Source of the DNA: Escherichia phage vB_EcoA_fTuEco01
DNA: 44,320 nt
Direction: 5' to 3' (one strand)
Sequence record: MZ031013.1
A program made the translations under genes and the position numbers. Below are positions 4,181 to 20,272 of the stretch, piece by piece. Below the pieces are notes generated by a model. That model was not told where the DNA came from. It searched no databases and saw nothing but the letters and a program-made list of their open reading frames with translations. Position 1 is the stretch's first letter. Every line of letters begins with the position of its first letter.

Positions 4181-6808
4181 ATGCAAGACCTACACGCTAT
4201 TCAACTTCAACTTGAAGAAGAAATGTTTAACGGCGGTATCCGTCGCTTTGAAGCGGACCAACAACGCCAGATTGCATCCGGTAATGAATCAGACACGGCA
4301 TGGAATCGCCGTTTATTGTCCGAGTTAATCGCGCCAATGGCTGAAGGTATTCAGGCATACAAGGAAGAGTATGAAGGTAAAAGAGGCCGTGCACCGCGTG
4401 CATTAGCTTTCATTAACTGCGTAGAAAACGAAGTGGCAGCATATATCACGATGAAAATCGTTATGGATATGCTGAATACAGACGTTACCTTACAAGCAAT
4501 CGCTATGAATGTAGCGGACCGCATCGAAGACCAAGTACGTTTTAGCAAGCTGGAAGGTCACGCAGCTAAGTACTTTGAGAAAGTGAAGAAGTCGCTTAAG
4601 GCTAGCAAGACTAAATCTTATCGTCATGCGCACAACGTAGCGGTAGTAGCTGAGAAATCTGTTGCTGACCGTGACGCGGATTTCTCCCGTTGGGAGGCAT
4701 GGCCTAAAGATACCTTGCTACAAATCGGTATGACCTTGCTAGAAATACTGGAAAATAGTGTATTCTTCAATGGTCAGCCTGTCTTTCTTCGCACCTTGCG
4801 CACTAATGGTGGCAAGCATGGCGTTTACTACTTACAGACCAGTGAACACGTAGGGGAATGGATTACAGCATTTAAAGAACATGTAGCGCAACTTAGCCCG
4901 GCTTATGCACCTTGCGTTATACCTCCGCGTCCGTGGGTTTCTCCTTTTAATGGCGGTTTTCACACTGAGAAGGTAGCAAGTCGTGTGCGTCTTGTTAAAG
5001 GCAGCCGTGAACACGTCCGCAAGCTGACCAAAAAGCAAATGCCAGCGGTTTACAAGGCTGTTAACGCTTTGCAGGCGACTAAATGGCAGGTTAACAAGGA
5101 AGTTTTACAGGTTGTTGAGGACGTAATACGGCTTGATTTAGGCTATGGCGTACCTTCCTTCAAACCACTCATCGACCGCGAGAACAAGCCAGCTAATCCG
5201 GTGCCGTTAGAGTTCCAGCACCTGCGAGGCCGTGAACTGAAAGAAATGTTAACACCGGAACAATGGCAAGCCTTCATCAACTGGAAAGGTGAATGCACCA
5301 AGCTGTATACCGCTGAGACTAAGCGCGGCAGCAAATCGGCGGCGACCGTCCGCATGGTAGGGCAGGCCCGTAAATACAGCCAATTTGACGCAATATACTT
5401 CGTGTATGCTCTGGACAGCCGCAGCCGCGTCTACGCGCAATCTAGCACGCTCTCTCCGCAATCAAACGACTTAGGCAAGGCATTGCTCCGTTTTACCGAA
5501 GGGCAGCGTCTTGATAGCGCTGAGGCGCTTAAGTGGTTTTTGGTGAACGGGGCTAATAACTGGGGTTGGGATAAGAAAACTTTTGACGTGCGCACCGCTA
5601 ACGTGCTGGATAGTGAATTTCAAGACATGTGCCGCGACATTGCAGCGGATCCGCTGACCTTCACTCAATGGGTAAATGCCGACTCCCCTTACGGCTTCCT
5701 TGCATGGTGCTTTGAATATGCGCGTTATCTGGATGCACTGGATGAAGGCACGCAAGACCAATTCATGACGCACCTCCCAGTCCATCAAGATGGTAGTTGT
5801 TCTGGTATCCAGCACTACAGTGCTATGCTACGCGATGCAGTAGGTGCGAAAGCGGTAAACCTTAAGCCCTCTGACTCACCTCAAGATATTTATGGTGCCG
5901 TTGCGCAGGTAGTAATTCAGAAGAATTATGCATACATGAATGCAGAGGATGCGGAAACCTTCACTTCTGGCAGCGTGACTTTAACAGGTGCAGAACTTCG
6001 TAGCATGGCTAGTGCGTGGGATATGATAGGAATCACTCGCGGCCTGACCAAAAAGCCTGTAATGACACTACCTTATGGCAGCACACGTCTAACCTGCCGT
6101 GAATCAGTGATTGATTATATCGTTGATTTGGAAGAAAAAGAGGCCCAACGGGCTATTGCGGAAGGGCGTACCGCCAATCCTGTACATCCTTTTGATAATG
6201 ACCGCAAAGACAGCCTGACACCTAGCGCAGCTTATAACTATATGACAGCTTTAATCTGGCCTTCTATTTCGGAAGTGGTTAAAGCTCCTATAGTGGCAAT
6301 GAAAATGATTCGTCAGCTTGCACGTTTCGCAGCTAAAAGAAACGAAGGCTTAGAATATCCCTTACCAACTGGCTTCATCTTGCAACAAAAGATAATGGCT
6401 ACCGATATGCTCCGCGTATCCACTTGCTTGATGGGTGAAATCAAGATGAGTCTCCAGATTGAAACAGATGTAGTTGATGAAACGGCAATGATGGGTGCGG
6501 CTGCTCCTAACTTCGTCCATGGTCACGATGCTAGCCACCTGATTCTGACTGTATGTGACCTAGTGGATAAAGGTATTACATCCATTGCAGTCATCCATGA
6601 TTCTTTCGGTACTCATGCAGGACGTACCGCAGACCTGCGGGATAGCTTAAGGGAAGAAATGGTTAAGATGTATCAAAACCATAATGCCCTGCAAAACCTG
6701 CTAGATGTGCACGAAGAGCGTTGGTTAGTAGACACCGGAATCCAAGTACCAGAGCAAGGAGAGTTTGACCTTAACGAAATCTTAGTTTCAGACTATTGTT
6801 TCGCATAA
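4181..6808 (+). CDS. Single-subunit DNA-directed RNA polymerase (T7 gene 1-like), 875 aa
   Basis: [22 protein letters not shown] and the C-terminal ILVSDYCFA correspond to T7 RNAP motifs ([22 protein letters not shown], ...FAFA). Size is close to SP6 RNAP. Confidence 0.95.
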
Positions 6809-15500: not shown

Positions 15501-15523
15501 ATTTACTGGACACTATAGAAGAG
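15501..15523 (+). promoter_or_regulatory. Phage RNAP promoter (ATTTACTGGACACTATAGAAGAG)
   Basis: Perfect consensus. Confidence 0.8.
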
Positions 15524-16003: not shown

Positions 16004-16037
16004 GCCCTGTCTGCCTTAGTGTAGGCAGGGTCTTTTG
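16004..16037 (+). terminator. Rho-independent terminator
   Basis: gccctgtctgcc / ggcaggg stem of about 8 bp (one G-U pair) followed by TCTTTTG. Confidence 0.55.
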
Positions 16038-16062: not shown

Positions 16063-16335
16063 ATGCCGACTATTGAATCTCGAATTGAACTGGACATTAG
16101 CTACAATGCAATCACCAGACAGTATATTGGGGTTGCCTATGATTACAAAACTGGTGAGAAGCTAGTGGAGGTGAGACAATGGGATGACTATTGGTTAAGA
16201 CAGAACCTCCATGATGCGGTGTCCTCCTTCTTGAAGGAGTGGCCTACATGCGACCAAACTTCGACTTCGGAGCTACAGTATCGGAAGACAATAACCTCAT
16301 CCTGTGGCCAACTGAAGGTAATCGAATCGCTTTAA
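16063..16335 (+). CDS. Hypothetical protein, 90 aa; its 3' end overlaps the exonuclease gene in another frame
   Basis: ATG at 16063 with a GGAGAATG RBS. The roughly 88-nt overlap with the next gene makes the true 3' end uncertain. Confidence 0.35.
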   Translation: MPTIESRIELDISYNAITRQYIGVAYDYKTGEKLVEVRQWDDYWLRQNLHDAVSSFLKEWPTCDQTSTSELQYRKTITSSCGQLKVIESL

Positions 16336-17273
16336 TAGATGCTGATATGTTACCCTACATCGTAGGTTATACAATCAGTGACATGACTTATTTACGAGCC
16401 ACAACTCGTGTTAAGTCAGGACAAGTCCCATCAATCAAAGATACACCTGAGTGTAAGCAAGCATGTGACCGTGTGAACTCCTTGCTTAACTCTTGGGTGT
16501 ATGCAGCAGAGTGTGATGCAGCTAAGCTATTCATGACGAAATCAGAAGCTAACTTCCGTGTCCGCCTAGCATTCACAAAGCCTTATAAGGGTCAACGTAA
16601 GACCGAGAAGCCTCCGTTCTTCTATGAATTGCGAGAGCATCTCTTAGAGGTTCACGGTGCAATCTTGGCAGATGGTGAGGAAGCTGATGACCTCATGAGC
16701 ATCGCACAATGGGATAGCCACCGCCGCTTCCAGCAAGATACAGGTAACGAGTTCGCTATCGGTAGTCCAGAGCATAAAGCATTCTCTGATACTTGCATCG
16801 TTTCCTTAGATAAGGATTTGATGATTGTTCCCGGTTGGCATCTACAGCCGGGTCAAGAGAAGAAGTGGGTAGAGCCTATGGGCTGGCTTGAGCTACGCCG
16901 TAAGGCTAATGGGCAAGTCAAAGATCTAAAAGGTGCTGGCCTCATGTTCCACTATGCACAGATGATTATCGGTGATGATATTGATAACTATGCTGGCATA
17001 CCAGGTCGTGGTGCTAAATATGCCTATGATCTTCTCAAAGATTGTAAGACAGAGAAAGAGTTGTACATGGCAGTGCTGGGTGCTTACAAGGCTAAGTTCG
17101 GGCATGGACAAGTTAAAATTAAGAATTACCGAGGTGGTTATCGTATCGGCAAAGCCTTTGACCTAATGCTTGAGTGTGGTCGCTTAGCTCACATGGCAAG
17201 ATTCAAGGGTGATATATGGCGAGCCGATAAGAACCCAATCTTGTGGGGAGATGAAGGATGGCTACAAAGTTAA
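16248..17273 (+). CDS. 5'-3' exonuclease, FEN/T7 gene 6-like, 341 aa
   Basis: N-terminal IALIDADMLPYIVGY parallels T7 gp6 GILVMDGDWLVFQAM; acidic-cluster pattern and position between polymerase and resolvase. ATG at 16248 lies 8 nt after AAGGAG. Confidence 0.75.
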   Translation: MRPNFDFGATVSEDNNLILWPTEGNRIALIDADMLPYIVGYTISDMTYLRATTRVKSGQVPSIKDTPECKQACDRVNSLLNSWVYAAECDAAKLFMTKSEANFRVRLAFTKPYKGQRKTEKPPFFYELREHLLEVHGAILADGEEADDLMSIAQWDSHRRFQQDTGNEFAIGSPEHKAFSDTCIVSLDKDLMIVPGWHLQPGQEKKWVEPMGWLELRRKANGQVKDLKGAGLMFHYAQMIIGDDIDNYAGIPGRGAKYAYDLLKDCKTEKELYMAVLGAYKAKFGHGQVKIKNYRGGYRIGKAFDLMLECGRLAHMARFKGDIWRADKNPILWGDEGWLQS

Positions 17274-17671
17274 AAGCATCTGAAGTTGCTGCTTATAAGA
17301 AAGAGTTGCTAGAGAAGCAGGGCTGGAAATGTCCTATTTGTGGAGCACCTCTTAAAGCAGTAGCCGAGATTAACCGAGTACTAGACCATTGCCATCGCAG
17401 AGGTTACTGTAGAGCAGTACTCTGTCGTGGGTGCAATGGCGGTATCGGGAAGATAGAAAACCTAGTAAAGACTTATTGTAAGGCTGGGGATAATGAGTAT
17501 TTCATTATCAAGACATTGCGAAACATTGCAGATTATCTAGACTTACATAGTAAGCCTCAGACTGATAAGATTTATCATAAACATCAAACGGAGGCAGAGA
17601 AGCGCGAGGCTAAGAACCGTAAGGCACGCCTTGCTTATGCAAGAAAGAAGAAGGAGGTTAAAGTTGGGTAA
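17258..17671 (+). CDS. Endonuclease VII-type Holliday-junction resolvase, 137 aa
   Basis: CPICG...LDHCH...GYCRAVLCRGCNGG matches the zinc-binding / His-containing core of T4 endonuclease VII (C.IC...LDHDH...G.VRGLLC..CN) as I recall it. Confidence 0.7.
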   Translation: MATKLKASEVAAYKKELLEKQGWKCPICGAPLKAVAEINRVLDHCHRRGYCRAVLCRGCNGGIGKIENLVKTYCKAGDNEYFIIKTLRNIADYLDLHSKPQTDKIYHKHQTEAEKREAKNRKARLAYARKKKEVKVG

Positions 17672-18671
17672 GCTCCGCAGCTTGTACAAAGACTCCGAGG
17701 TACTTGATGCAATCGAGCAAGCTACCGACGAGAAAGGTAATGTTAACTACAATGAGATGGCACGTGTATTATCGTGTCATCCTGTGGGTAAGAAGATTAC
17801 CCGCCAGTTGGCTCGATACTGGCATGGTCAATTCAAGAAGACCAAGAAGAATGGTGATTACTACCAGACTCTTCTGCAAGAGGATAAGCGTATCAAAGAA
17901 GAGCGTAAGCTCAGGACTCCTGACCGCTATGAGGATTTGGCTATTGTACCACTGCCTGACTCGCCTCATCGAAGTGTACTGGTAATTCCTGACACTCATG
18001 CACCTTACGAGCACCCAGATACATTAGAGTTTCTGGCAGCGGTGGCAGCACGTTACCGTCCAGACACTGTAGTTCATCTTGGTGATGAGGCAGATAAACA
18101 TGCCTTATCGTTCCACGATTCAGACCCCAATCTTGATAGTGCTGGCATGGAGTTAGAGAAGGCCCGTGTCTTTATGCATAAATTACACAAGATGTTTCCT
18201 GTGATGCGCCTGTGTCATTCTAATCACGGCTCTATGCACTTCCGTAAGGCAAGCACCAAAGGTATTCCTGTACAATATCTGCGTACCTATCGTGAAGTCT
18301 TCTTCCCGCATGGGGGTGGCGACCAGTGGGATTGGCAGCATACACACGTTCTTGAGTTGCCGAATGGTGAACAGGTTGCATTTAAGCATCAACCCGCAGG
18401 CTCAGTCTTAGCAGATGCAGCGCATGAGCGCATGAACTTAGTGTGCGGTCACTTGCATGGTAAGATGTCTGTGGAGTATGCACGTAATACACATGAACAG
18501 TATTGGGCTGTGCAGGGCGGCTGTTTGATTGATGAGTCATCTCGTGCATTTGCCTATGGTCGTGAGTCCAAATACAAGCCAGCATTAGGTTGTGTGGTTA
18601 TTCTGGAGGGTGTGCCGCACATTGTCCCGATGCAGACCAATAATGACAATCGCTGGATTGGTAAAATTTAG
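17664..18671 (+). CDS. Calcineurin-like metallophosphoesterase with an N-terminal extension of about 100 aa, about 335 aa
   Basis: Motifs in order: IPDTHAP (D-x-H), HLGDEADK (G-D-x-x-D), CHSNHG (G-N-H-like), CGHLHG (G-H-x-H). TTG start at 17664 lies 6 nt after AAGGAGG; the track starts at 17631. Confidence 0.7.
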   Translation: MGKLRSLYKDSEVLDAIEQATDEKGNVNYNEMARVLSCHPVGKKITRQLARYWHGQFKKTKKNGDYYQTLLQEDKRIKEERKLRTPDRYEDLAIVPLPDSPHRSVLVIPDTHAPYEHPDTLEFLAAVAARYRPDTVVHLGDEADKHALSFHDSDPNLDSAGMELEKARVFMHKLHKMFPVMRLCHSNHGSMHFRKASTKGIPVQYLRTYREVFFPHGGGDQWDWQHTHVLELPNGEQVAFKHQPAGSVLADAAHERMNLVCGHLHGKMSVEYARNTHEQYWAVQGGCLIDESSRAFAYGRESKYKPALGCVVILEGVPHIVPMQTNNDNRWIGKI

Positions 18672-18686
18672 TTGACACTATAGAAC
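18666..18686 (+). promoter_or_regulatory. Phage RNAP promoter variant (ATTTAGTTGACACTATAGAAC)
   Basis: Consensus match with variation in the -12 to -9 region; overlaps the stop of the upstream gene. Confidence 0.65.
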
Positions 18687-18739
18687 AAGGGGTAGGTATT
18701 AGCTTGCCCTTGATTGTATAGTGAATGGAGGAATTAATT

Positions 18740-19210
18740 ATGTCAAAGATTTATATTGGCGAATACGTCGTACGCCGTGCAGCTTACCGAGATGCCATCT
18801 GGAATAAACTGTGTGAAAGCCTAGACAAGAAACCAGATGGGGTATTCAAAGTATCCCGTGCAGAACCTAATTATAACTCTATCATGTTAGAAGGTGTTGA
18901 GAAGCGCGAATGGTATGCACCTTACTTCAAGGTTGTTGACTCATTGCAAGGTGAAGACCCTAGCACGTTGGACAACAATATGGTTACTAAGCCTAAGCAC
19001 TACGAGTTCTTCGATGGGGTAGAGGCAATCACTATCATTGCTCGTAGTATGACCGAGAAGCAATTTGCTGGATATTGCATGGGTAATGCTTTGAAGTATC
19101 GTCTGCGTGCAGGTAAGAAATTCAATACTGAAGAAGACCTGAAGAAAGCAGACTACTATAAAGAGTTATTCCAGAAACATCGTCACGAATGTATTGATGA
19201 GGATATTTGA
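18740..19210 (+). CDS. Hypothetical protein, about 156 aa, possibly DUF3310-like
   Basis: ATG at 18740 after a GGAGG RBS; HYEFFDGVEAITII...GNALKYRLRAGKK resembles a phage-associated motif I recall only loosely. Confidence 0.5.
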   Translation: MSKIYIGEYVVRRAAYRDAIWNKLCESLDKKPDGVFKVSRAEPNYNSIMLEGVEKREWYAPYFKVVDSLQGEDPSTLDNNMVTKPKHYEFFDGVEAITIIARSMTEKQFAGYCMGNALKYRLRAGKKFNTEEDLKKADYYKELFQKHRHECIDEDI

Positions 19211-19211
19211 T

Positions 19212-19328
19212 ATGACTTGTCCTAATTGTGGAAGTGAAGAAACAGAACATGTAGTTATGTCAGATACTTATCATTTCTATTTCTGTCATAACTGCGACAC
19301 TACCATTGAAGAGGAAGAAGCTGTATGA
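19212..19328 (+). CDS. Small zinc-ribbon protein, 38 aa (CPNCG ... CHNCD)
   Basis: Two CxxC pairs spaced for a zinc ribbon; ATGA overlap with the ligase start. Confidence 0.4.
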   Translation: MTCPNCGSEETEHVVMSDTYHFYFCHNCDTTIEEEEAV

Positions 19329-20272
19329 ATATCTTTGAGTTCCTAGGTCTTCCAGAAGATCACCGCAATCACCCATTCATGCTAGTGAAACATCGCGGTG
19401 AAGTCCCTGAGAAGAAACTTACTTTTCCCTGTTATGCACAGGTGAAACGAGATGGTATCTTTTCTGCTGTTGTTGTTCGCACTGATGGTGTCGTTGGCAT
19501 TTTTGGTCGCACTGGTAAGAAACTGGCAAACACTGAAGTCCTCGAACAAACATTTGCTACCTTTCCGGTTGGCATTTATCTTGGTGAGCTTCAGTCTATG
19601 GCCGTTGATATCTACCTTGAAGCTCTATCAGGGGTGGTAAATCCTAATCGTACAGAGCCGCTTGACTTTATAGGCCAGCAGATTAAAGACAAACTGTATA
19701 TCGACTTCTTCGATATGTTAACCATTAAGGCATTCCATGATGGATTCACTGATGTTTCTTATCTCAAACGTTACGATGCTTTACATCGTCGCATCGGCAC
19801 TCATCTTAGCGGGTACAACGCTATCCTTCCTATTACTCCTTGCCATAATGAGCGAGAAGTTGAAGCGTTTGCGCAAGAGCAAATAGATGCAGGCCGAGAG
19901 GGTGCTGTGTTTAAGCTGGACTGTGATTATGAAGCAGGCCACAAAGGTTATCGTCAGACTAAAGAAGTTCGTAAGGTAACTTATGACCTTACTTGTATTG
20001 GCTTTGAAGAAGGCAAGGGTAAATACAAAGGTAAGGTAGCTAACCTCATTTTCAAATGGAAAGGAGGCAAGACAATCAAAGCTATGTTAGGTAAAGGGTG
20101 GACTCATGCAGATGCAGAACAGATGTTCCACGATATTAAACATGGCGGGCGATTGAATGTCATTGGTAAAATCTTTGAAGTAAAAGGTCTTCAGGATTCA
20201 AGCAAGGGCAACATTCGTCTGCCCAAAGCGGGAGAATTAAGACATGACAAAGATGAACCAGATTTCTTTTGA
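19325..20272 (+). CDS. ATP-dependent DNA ligase (T7 gene 1.3-like), 315 aa
   Basis: Nucleotidyltransferase motif I (AQVKRDG, cf. T7 EIKYDG) and an EGAVFK motif IV-like block; size is typical of minimal phage ligases. Confidence 0.8.
   Translation: MNIFEFLGLPEDHRNHPFMLVKHRGEVPEKKLTFPCYAQVKRDGIFSAVVVRTDGVVGIFGRTGKKLANTEVLEQTFATFPVGIYLGELQSMAVDIYLEALSGVVNPNRTEPLDFIGQQIKDKLYIDFFDMLTIKAFHDGFTDVSYLKRYDALHRRIGTHLSGYNAILPITPCHNEREVEAFAQEQIDAGREGAVFKLDCDYEAGHKGYRQTKEVRKVTYDLTCIGFEEGKGKYKGKVANLIFKWKGGKTIKAMLGKGWTHADAEQMFHDIKHGGRLNVIGKIFEVKGLQDSSKGNIRLPKAGELRHDKDEPDFF

Follow-up and report, generated by a model that had tools for sequence, protein, structure and literature searches.

What is the task of the metallophosphoesterase (MPE) that is encoded in the middle region of SP6-, KP34- and PhiM1-type podophages, where it is one of the few conserved enzymes without an assigned role? 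We addressed this question in Escherichia phage vB_EcoA_fTuEco01 (MZ031013.1), whose 44,320-nucleotide sequence, hereafter the window, constitutes the whole genome of an SP6/K1E-like podophage (Autographiviridae, Molineuxvirinae, Vectrevirus). The question has practical weight since many phages of these types are candidates for therapy against E. coli K1, Klebsiella, Proteus and Pectobacterium, and T7, the model for this phage group, has no MPE homologue. The answer on which we would place even odds is that the MPE is a DNA-tethered nuclease which belongs to the DNA-metabolism programme of the phage, together with an exonuclease and endonuclease VII.

From the conservation of its motifs, the window protein is a calcineurin-like metallophosphoesterase (PF00149 superfamily) with an intact active site. 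The residues D110/H112, D141/D144, N187/H188, H242 and H263/H265 do not vary among 31 homologues (48-87% identity), and in a broader 37-sequence alignment of the core D141, N187, H188, H242, H263 and H265 remain invariant, with H112 at least 90% conserved. The Pfam model PF00149 is passed marginally (22.6 bits against a cut-off of 21.5), and the predicted structure of the window protein is a beta-sandwich MPE fold, in which the highly conserved loop after motif II (H146, S149, H151, P155) is modelled with low confidence. Neither the single protein nor either of two family profiles matched an MPE chain when searched by sequence against the PDB, which is indicative of a strongly diverged subfamily, as PDB chains are out of reach even for family profiles. 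An earlier note on this DNA, made from the letters alone, had listed all calcineurin-like motifs in order, an additional N-terminal domain of about 100 amino acids (aa) and a position in the replication module; all three hold, as five motifs with invariant ligands, as a conserved extension of residues 1-103 and as a gene with exonuclease and endonuclease VII neighbours. The loss of metal ligands on alignment, which the note had considered, is not seen in the 31 homologues, and we agree with it that the sequence does not reveal the substrate.

A more specific placement comes from profile comparisons, by which the window core belongs to the Bxb1 gp47 / L5 gp54 / A10ZJ24 gp48 clade of mycobacteriophage proteins. 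With hhalign, the family profile scored 87.5% (E 3.6e-6, 190 columns) against the single Bxb1 gp47 sequence and 96.5% (E 8.3e-10) against a 20-sequence gp47/L5 gp54 profile, and the 37-sequence core profile scored 98.7% (E 2.6e-16) against the gp47 clade over 202 columns, which is almost the whole domain. The kinship is specific, since the same profiles gave far lower values with the controls, namely 13.6% and 21.8% for lambda phosphatase (motifs I-III only) and 4.9% and 14.0% for E. coli SbcD (42-43 columns only). The two groups also have a similar context of motif I (PDTHAPY in the window, SDTQxPY in mycobacteriophages) and a long conserved insert after motif II, and both are encoded amid genes for DNA polymerase, primase, endonuclease VII and exonuclease; the Bxb1 locus carries genes for endonuclease VII, exonuclease, primase and helicase. 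They differ in that identity is only about 22%, in that the mycobacteriophage proteins are about 255 aa long and lack the N-terminal, probably HTH-like (helix-turn-helix-like) domain of the window protein, and in that most of them replace the motif I His, kept in the window, with Gln.

What has been reported for this clade points to DNA. The phosphodiesterase A10ZJ24 gp48 digests DNA in vitro, be it linear, plasmid or genomic, and its motif mutants are inactive; in vivo, it breaks the host genome down, and the phage needs the protein to replicate its DNA in M. tuberculosis (PMC12287305). Bxb1 gp47 is reported, in PMC11795197, which cites Savinov 2012, to be essential to the replication of phage DNA and to display a weak 3'-5' exonuclease activity. 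It is also the recombination directionality factor of a serine integrase (PMC1470463, PMC11795197), a second function that is irrelevant to a lytic phage without integrase such as the one studied here. Homologues of gp47 occur in tyrosine-integrase phages as well, and a role in replication was proposed from the position of the gene between polymerase and primase (PMC1470463). Given the kinship of the window core with an enzyme that a mycobacteriophage needs to replicate its DNA, a DNA-processing nuclease is the most likely function.

The N-terminal part of the protein is in keeping with a substrate of this kind. Residues 1-103 are conserved across the Autographiviridae, with a peak in the third helix (invariant L49, Y52, W53 and Q56), and are basic, with an isoelectric point (pI) of 9.35 as compared to 6.53 for the core. 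The top fold match of the N-terminal domain, a weak similarity, is the DNA-binding domain of a small terminase. We surveyed 149 cluster representatives for what precedes motif I; 59 were core-only, and in 56 the N-terminal extension was longer than 60 aa. Pfam scans of 55 extensions matched HTH_23 in 12 (best E 7e-9), HNH_repeat, a homing-endonuclease-associated domain, in three and Myb_DNA-bind_6 in two, with further matches to HTH_24, HTH_28, HTH_29, HTH_38 or HTH_SB. HTH domains are thus recurrently fused to this MPE core among its relatives, as far as domain matches tell. The window domain itself had no Pfam match when taken alone and no consistent match across 30 members, and its profile did not match the HTH-bearing extensions of two relatives in hhalign (at most 8%). 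By analogy, the domain is probably HTH-like and DNA-binding, a label that rests on fold and position because the direct profile comparison with HTH extensions was negative. Searched as a profile, the N-terminal alignment found nothing beyond fragments and split annotations of its own family, so that at this sensitivity the domain is not seen in other architectures.

The genomic surroundings were compared at 22 diverse loci. At 15 of these, the MPE gene lies directly after the endonuclease VII gene or within 500 nt of it; the SP6-like loci among them read DNA polymerase, further genes, exonuclease, endonuclease VII and MPE, followed by kinase, ligase and portal in varying combinations, and the phiKMV/Fri1/PhiM1-like loci read exonuclease, endonuclease VII and MPE with the RNA polymerase about 1 kb on. 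Six KP34-like loci have the MPE 2-3 kb upstream of an exonuclease-endonuclease VII-kinase run, and in the one annotated example, SU552A, it immediately follows the DNA polymerase gene. At the single remaining locus (L031), endonuclease VII was not detected. Since all but this locus have DNA-metabolism neighbours and the protein retains 42-50% identity across subfamilies, the pattern is that of a core middle gene and not of a variable early accessory gene.

The family is widespread. By tblastn, MPE relatives were found in 643 of 50,697 phage records, nearly all of them 40-47 kb Autographiviridae of Klebsiella (269), Escherichia, Pectobacterium, Pseudomonas, Aeromonas, Vibrio, Proteus and Salmonella. 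When 1.84 billion cluster representatives (50% identity) were searched with a profile, 3111 clusters had E <=1e-3, 778 of them E <=1e-30, and because of this number of clusters the part in replication that was proposed for the proteins of mycobacteriophages may well be widespread. Some homologues carry inteins in the active site: a full-length SP6-type homologue (P0246) has an intein of about 300 aa inside motif II (GDE/C...N/CDNHA), another (P0285) has one inside motif I (PDLH/C...GN/CPYHH) with a LAGLIDADG domain (E 6e-7), and a third (P0386) has a weak LAGLIDADG match. Inteins favour the catalytic motifs of replication, recombination and repair enzymes, and their position in the catalytic motifs of these homologues therefore lends circumstantial support to a role in replication or repair. 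In Pseudomonas phage PA28 (OM234793, 30920-32797), the MPE match falls into two pieces over 1.9 kb, probably from the same cause.

Taken as a mechanism, the basic HTH-like N-terminal domain and the charged linker would tether a binuclear MPE core to DNA, and the core would hydrolyse DNA phosphodiester bonds as an exonuclease, an endonuclease or both. It would act in concert with endonuclease VII and the 5'-3' exonuclease, whose genes are translationally coupled to its own, in the breakdown of the host chromosome, the processing of replication or recombination intermediates, or both of these tasks, which would make phage DNA replication efficient. DNA binding by the N-terminal domain, DNA as the substrate and the role in vivo are what we infer here. 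Several observations weigh against this proposal. The gp47 clade is functionally mixed, as Bxb1 gp47, in which the His of motif I is replaced by Gln, has been described as being without phosphoesterase activity (PMC12287305). The fold neighbours of the window model are generic MPEs of 8-18% identity, which include Rv0805 and Lmo2642, and the top two, YfcE and MJ0936, are small-molecule phosphodiesterases without a known natural substrate. Outside the Autographiviridae, core-only relatives of 33-44% identity in the Cellulophaga crAss-like phage phi14:2 (L083, 4722-5645) and in Pelagibacter phage HTVC026P (L082, 4995-5696) lie among structural and lysis genes or small unassigned genes, with no obvious replication module. 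A six-frame search of T7 found no homologue (best 3.7 bits), and since T7 manages without one, the function of the MPE is not universal for this replication strategy. Finally, the literature that we found on the protein in SP6, K1E, KP34 and phiKMV-type phages consists of genome annotations, with no biochemical or genetic study.

Among the other explanations, a small-molecule or nucleic-acid-end phosphoesterase that serves the nucleotide economy of the infected cell, by end healing or salvage, is in our estimate unlikely. Such an enzyme would trim oligonucleotides, 3'-phosphates or 2',3'-cyclic phosphates from the breakdown of host DNA and RNA, and the neighbouring DUF3310 nucleotide kinase and ligase would reuse or seal the products. 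However, small-molecule substrates need no DNA-binding-type N-terminal domain, and across the 22 loci the MPE is less tightly linked to kinase and ligase than to endonuclease VII. In addition, the characterised homologue A10ZJ24 gp48 degrades long DNA, and the window ligase is by Pfam a DNA ligase and not an RNA ligase.

Rather improbable, even when the two are counted jointly, is that the protein is a nuclease targeted through its HTH-like domain or the first MPE-fold degrader of immune nucleotide signals. A targeted nuclease would recognise a sequence or structure on the host chromosome, at replication origins, at concatemer junctions or at terminal repeats. It could start the destruction of the host genome, by which host transcription would be switched off and inducible defences disarmed, as reported for A10ZJ24 gp48; alternatively, it could start a step of replication or packaging that T7 accomplishes otherwise.

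That the enzyme is an anti-defence phosphodiesterase directed at the messengers of CBASS, Pycsar, Thoeris or type III CRISPR immunity, as the earlier note had offered with its second-messenger phosphodiesterase, is improbable. MPEs can hydrolyse cyclic nucleotides, with D29 gp66 using cAMP according to PMC12287305, Rv0805 and Lmo2642 are among the fold neighbours of the predicted structure, and phages do encode messenger-degrading enzymes, as PMC9117128 describes. Yet the window gene is a conserved gene of the middle DNA-metabolism operon, coupled to endonuclease VII, fused to a DNA-binding-type domain and kept at 42-50% identity across distant genera, and the HTH fusions and inteins of its relatives point to DNA work. 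The phage messenger nucleases known so far have other folds than MPE (2H, metallo-beta-lactamase, DHH and HD-GYP). Our search found no literature link between this family and the degradation of immune messengers, and the suggestion of the note has gained no support. A messenger nuclease of the Acb1 or Apyc1 type (2H or metallo-beta-lactamase fold) was ruled out, as the window model has the MPE fold.

We give equally little credence to a mainly non-catalytic protein, that is, a DNA-binding regulator or a cofactor of another phage enzyme in the manner of Bxb1 gp47. The HTH-like domain would suit such a role and Bxb1 gp47 does act as an integrase cofactor (PMC1470463, PMC11795197), but the invariance of the catalytic residues among diverged homologues speaks for selection on catalysis, an integrase is absent from these lytic phages, and the inteins target catalytic motifs. 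Very improbable is a lambda-PPase-like protein phosphatase (Ser/Thr/Tyr) with host or phage proteins as its targets, which the note had proposed for host proteins. The lambda Ser/Thr phosphatase (NinI) is of the same superfamily as the window protein and can be aligned with it in motifs I-III, and several database records read 'protein phosphatase 2a-like', but hhalign gave 13.6-21.8% and the window has PDTHA, GDEADKH and SNHG where the PPP family has GDxHG, GDxVDRG and GNHE. The probability left over from these explanations and from the DNA-tethered nuclease belongs to others that we did not consider.

The nuclease proposed here also needs to be set apart from known MPE nucleases. Of the three suggestions of the note, an Mre11/SbcD-like nuclease came closest, in that the nuclease part agrees with our proposal and the orthology does not: SbcD scored 4.9-14% in hhalign over 42-43 columns and the profile search reached no Mre11 chain in the PDB. 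Unlike Mre11/SbcD and the DP1 subunit of PolD, the window protein has no identified capping or OB domain, and its DNA-binding-type domain is N-terminal and unrelated. No Rad50/SbcC-type ATPase was found in the orthologous region of K1E or in the open reading frames (ORFs) scanned with Pfam, the other large ORFs of the window not having been scanned individually. A DP1-like proofreading subunit was rejected because the T7-type family A polymerase of this phage presumably edits with a domain of its own and no PolD partner was identified. The metallophosphatases mentioned in the literature on Metis host defence and on Mre11-Rad50 fusions are of other families. The Pseudomonas putida MPE, PdeM, is a stand-alone Mn-dependent single-stranded DNA endonuclease encoded near an ATP-dependent ligase (PMC7826289). 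The window MPE gene likewise lies near a ligase gene and shows a weak local match to TIGR04123, the NCBIfam equivalog of PdeM, around motif II; as this match covers only 33 residues and scores 18.8 bits, far below the cut-off of 150, the window protein is not a member.

The gene and its label 'metallo-phosphoesterase' are already known in SP6, K1E and hundreds of relatives, as the label exists in RefSeq and PHROGs, which the note had missed. In RefSeq, the K1E orthologue gp22 carries this name with boundaries identical to those of the window gene, and PHROG_221 matches the window protein end to end (E 2.7e-105). Protein identity is 99.4% to phage ACG-C91 and 94% to SP6 gene 22; SP6 gene 22 and K1E gp22 are orthologues of equal length (94-99% identity), flanked likewise by endonuclease VII and the nucleotide kinase, and there is no difference of substance. 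The region 17000-19500 of the window has 89-97% DNA identity to many Vectrevirus genomes. No new kind of system is revealed. What is added here is the link to the gp47/gp48 clade, the recurrent pairing of HTH and MPE, the inteins, and the finding that the protein is outside the PPP, Mre11 and PdeM families. With the clade link, what was no more than a 'phosphoesterase' label becomes a hypothesis that can be tested, namely that of a DNA-tethered nuclease.

Coordinates of the MPE gene, its domains and motifs, and adjoining features in the window
Feature	Position	Strand	Remarks
5'-3' exonuclease gene (K1E gp20)	16239..17273	+	first of the overlapping exonuclease/endonuclease VII/MPE run; annotated start corresponds to 16248
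Endonuclease VII gene (K1E gp21)	17258..17671	+	Pfam Endonuclease_7 E 6.7e-13; overlaps both neighbours
Shine-Dalgarno sequence AAGGAGGT	17651..17658	+	5 nt 5' of the MPE TTG start; read from the sequence
gp22-type MPE gene	17664..18671	+	335 aa plus stop; TTG start; boundaries as K1E gp22
N-terminal basic helical domain (residues 1-58), probably HTH-like	17664..17837	+	helices 10-20, 29-37, 47-56
Charged linker (residues 59-103, KKTKKNG...RKLRTP...), one short helix	17838..17972	+	pI 9.1
MPE catalytic core (residues 104-335), assigned to the Bxb1 gp47 / L5 gp54 clade	17973..18668	+
Motif I, D110-T-H112 in PDTHAPYEH	17991..17999	+	clade-specific P114, Y115, H117 invariant
Motif II, G140-D141-E-A-D144	18081..18095	+
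Motif III, S186-N187-H188-G189	18219..18230	+
Motif IV, H242	18387..18389	+
Motif V, G262-H263-L-H265	18447..18458	+
SP6-type promoter ATTTAGTTGACACTATAGAA	18666..18685	+	1 mismatch to the SP6 consensus; overlaps the MPE TAG stop

The MPE start codon, which overlaps the stop codon of the endonuclease VII gene by 8 nt, is preceded by a Shine-Dalgarno sequence graded as strong. Starts further 5' (TTG 17631, ATG 17637) were rejected, as they have no comparably placed Shine-Dalgarno sequence and conflict with the annotation of the RefSeq orthologue. In the K1E record KY435490 and in Klebsiella phage IME184 (P0046, P0124), the gene is annotated as two ORFs, one for the N-terminal domain (104-106 aa) and one for the MPE (229-237 aa), for which a frameshift, a sequencing error and a real split are all possible. 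SP6-type promoter matches number eight in the window where none is expected by chance, the best being that at the MPE stop and the others lying at 2855, 9211, 10059, 13586, 15501, 23748 and 40959. Judging from these positions, the MPE gene appears to close the transcription unit that starts at the promoter at 15501, because its stop lies within a promoter match and the nearest match upstream is that at 15501. A terminator-like hairpin at 16004-16031 (+), with an 11-bp stem and a T-run, stands just after a gp18-like ORF and upstream of the gp19 and exonuclease genes.

Downstream of the MPE, the 'nucleotide kinase' gene (18725-19210, +) has DUF3310 only in its C-terminal 60 residues, the N-terminal 86 having no Pfam match, and its relatives are annotated as nucleotide kinase or polynucleotide kinase. 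Its end is overlapped by an ORF of 44 aa (19194-19328, +) with two CxxC pairs (CPNC...CHNC), which is zinc-ribbon-like and lies between the DUF3310 kinase and DNA ligase genes. The MPE of Pectobacterium phage PhiM1 (L085) has gp23 (4594-4851), a small gene in which mutations allow escape from ToxIN abortive infection, two to three genes upstream; gp23 separates the exonuclease gene from that of endonuclease VII.

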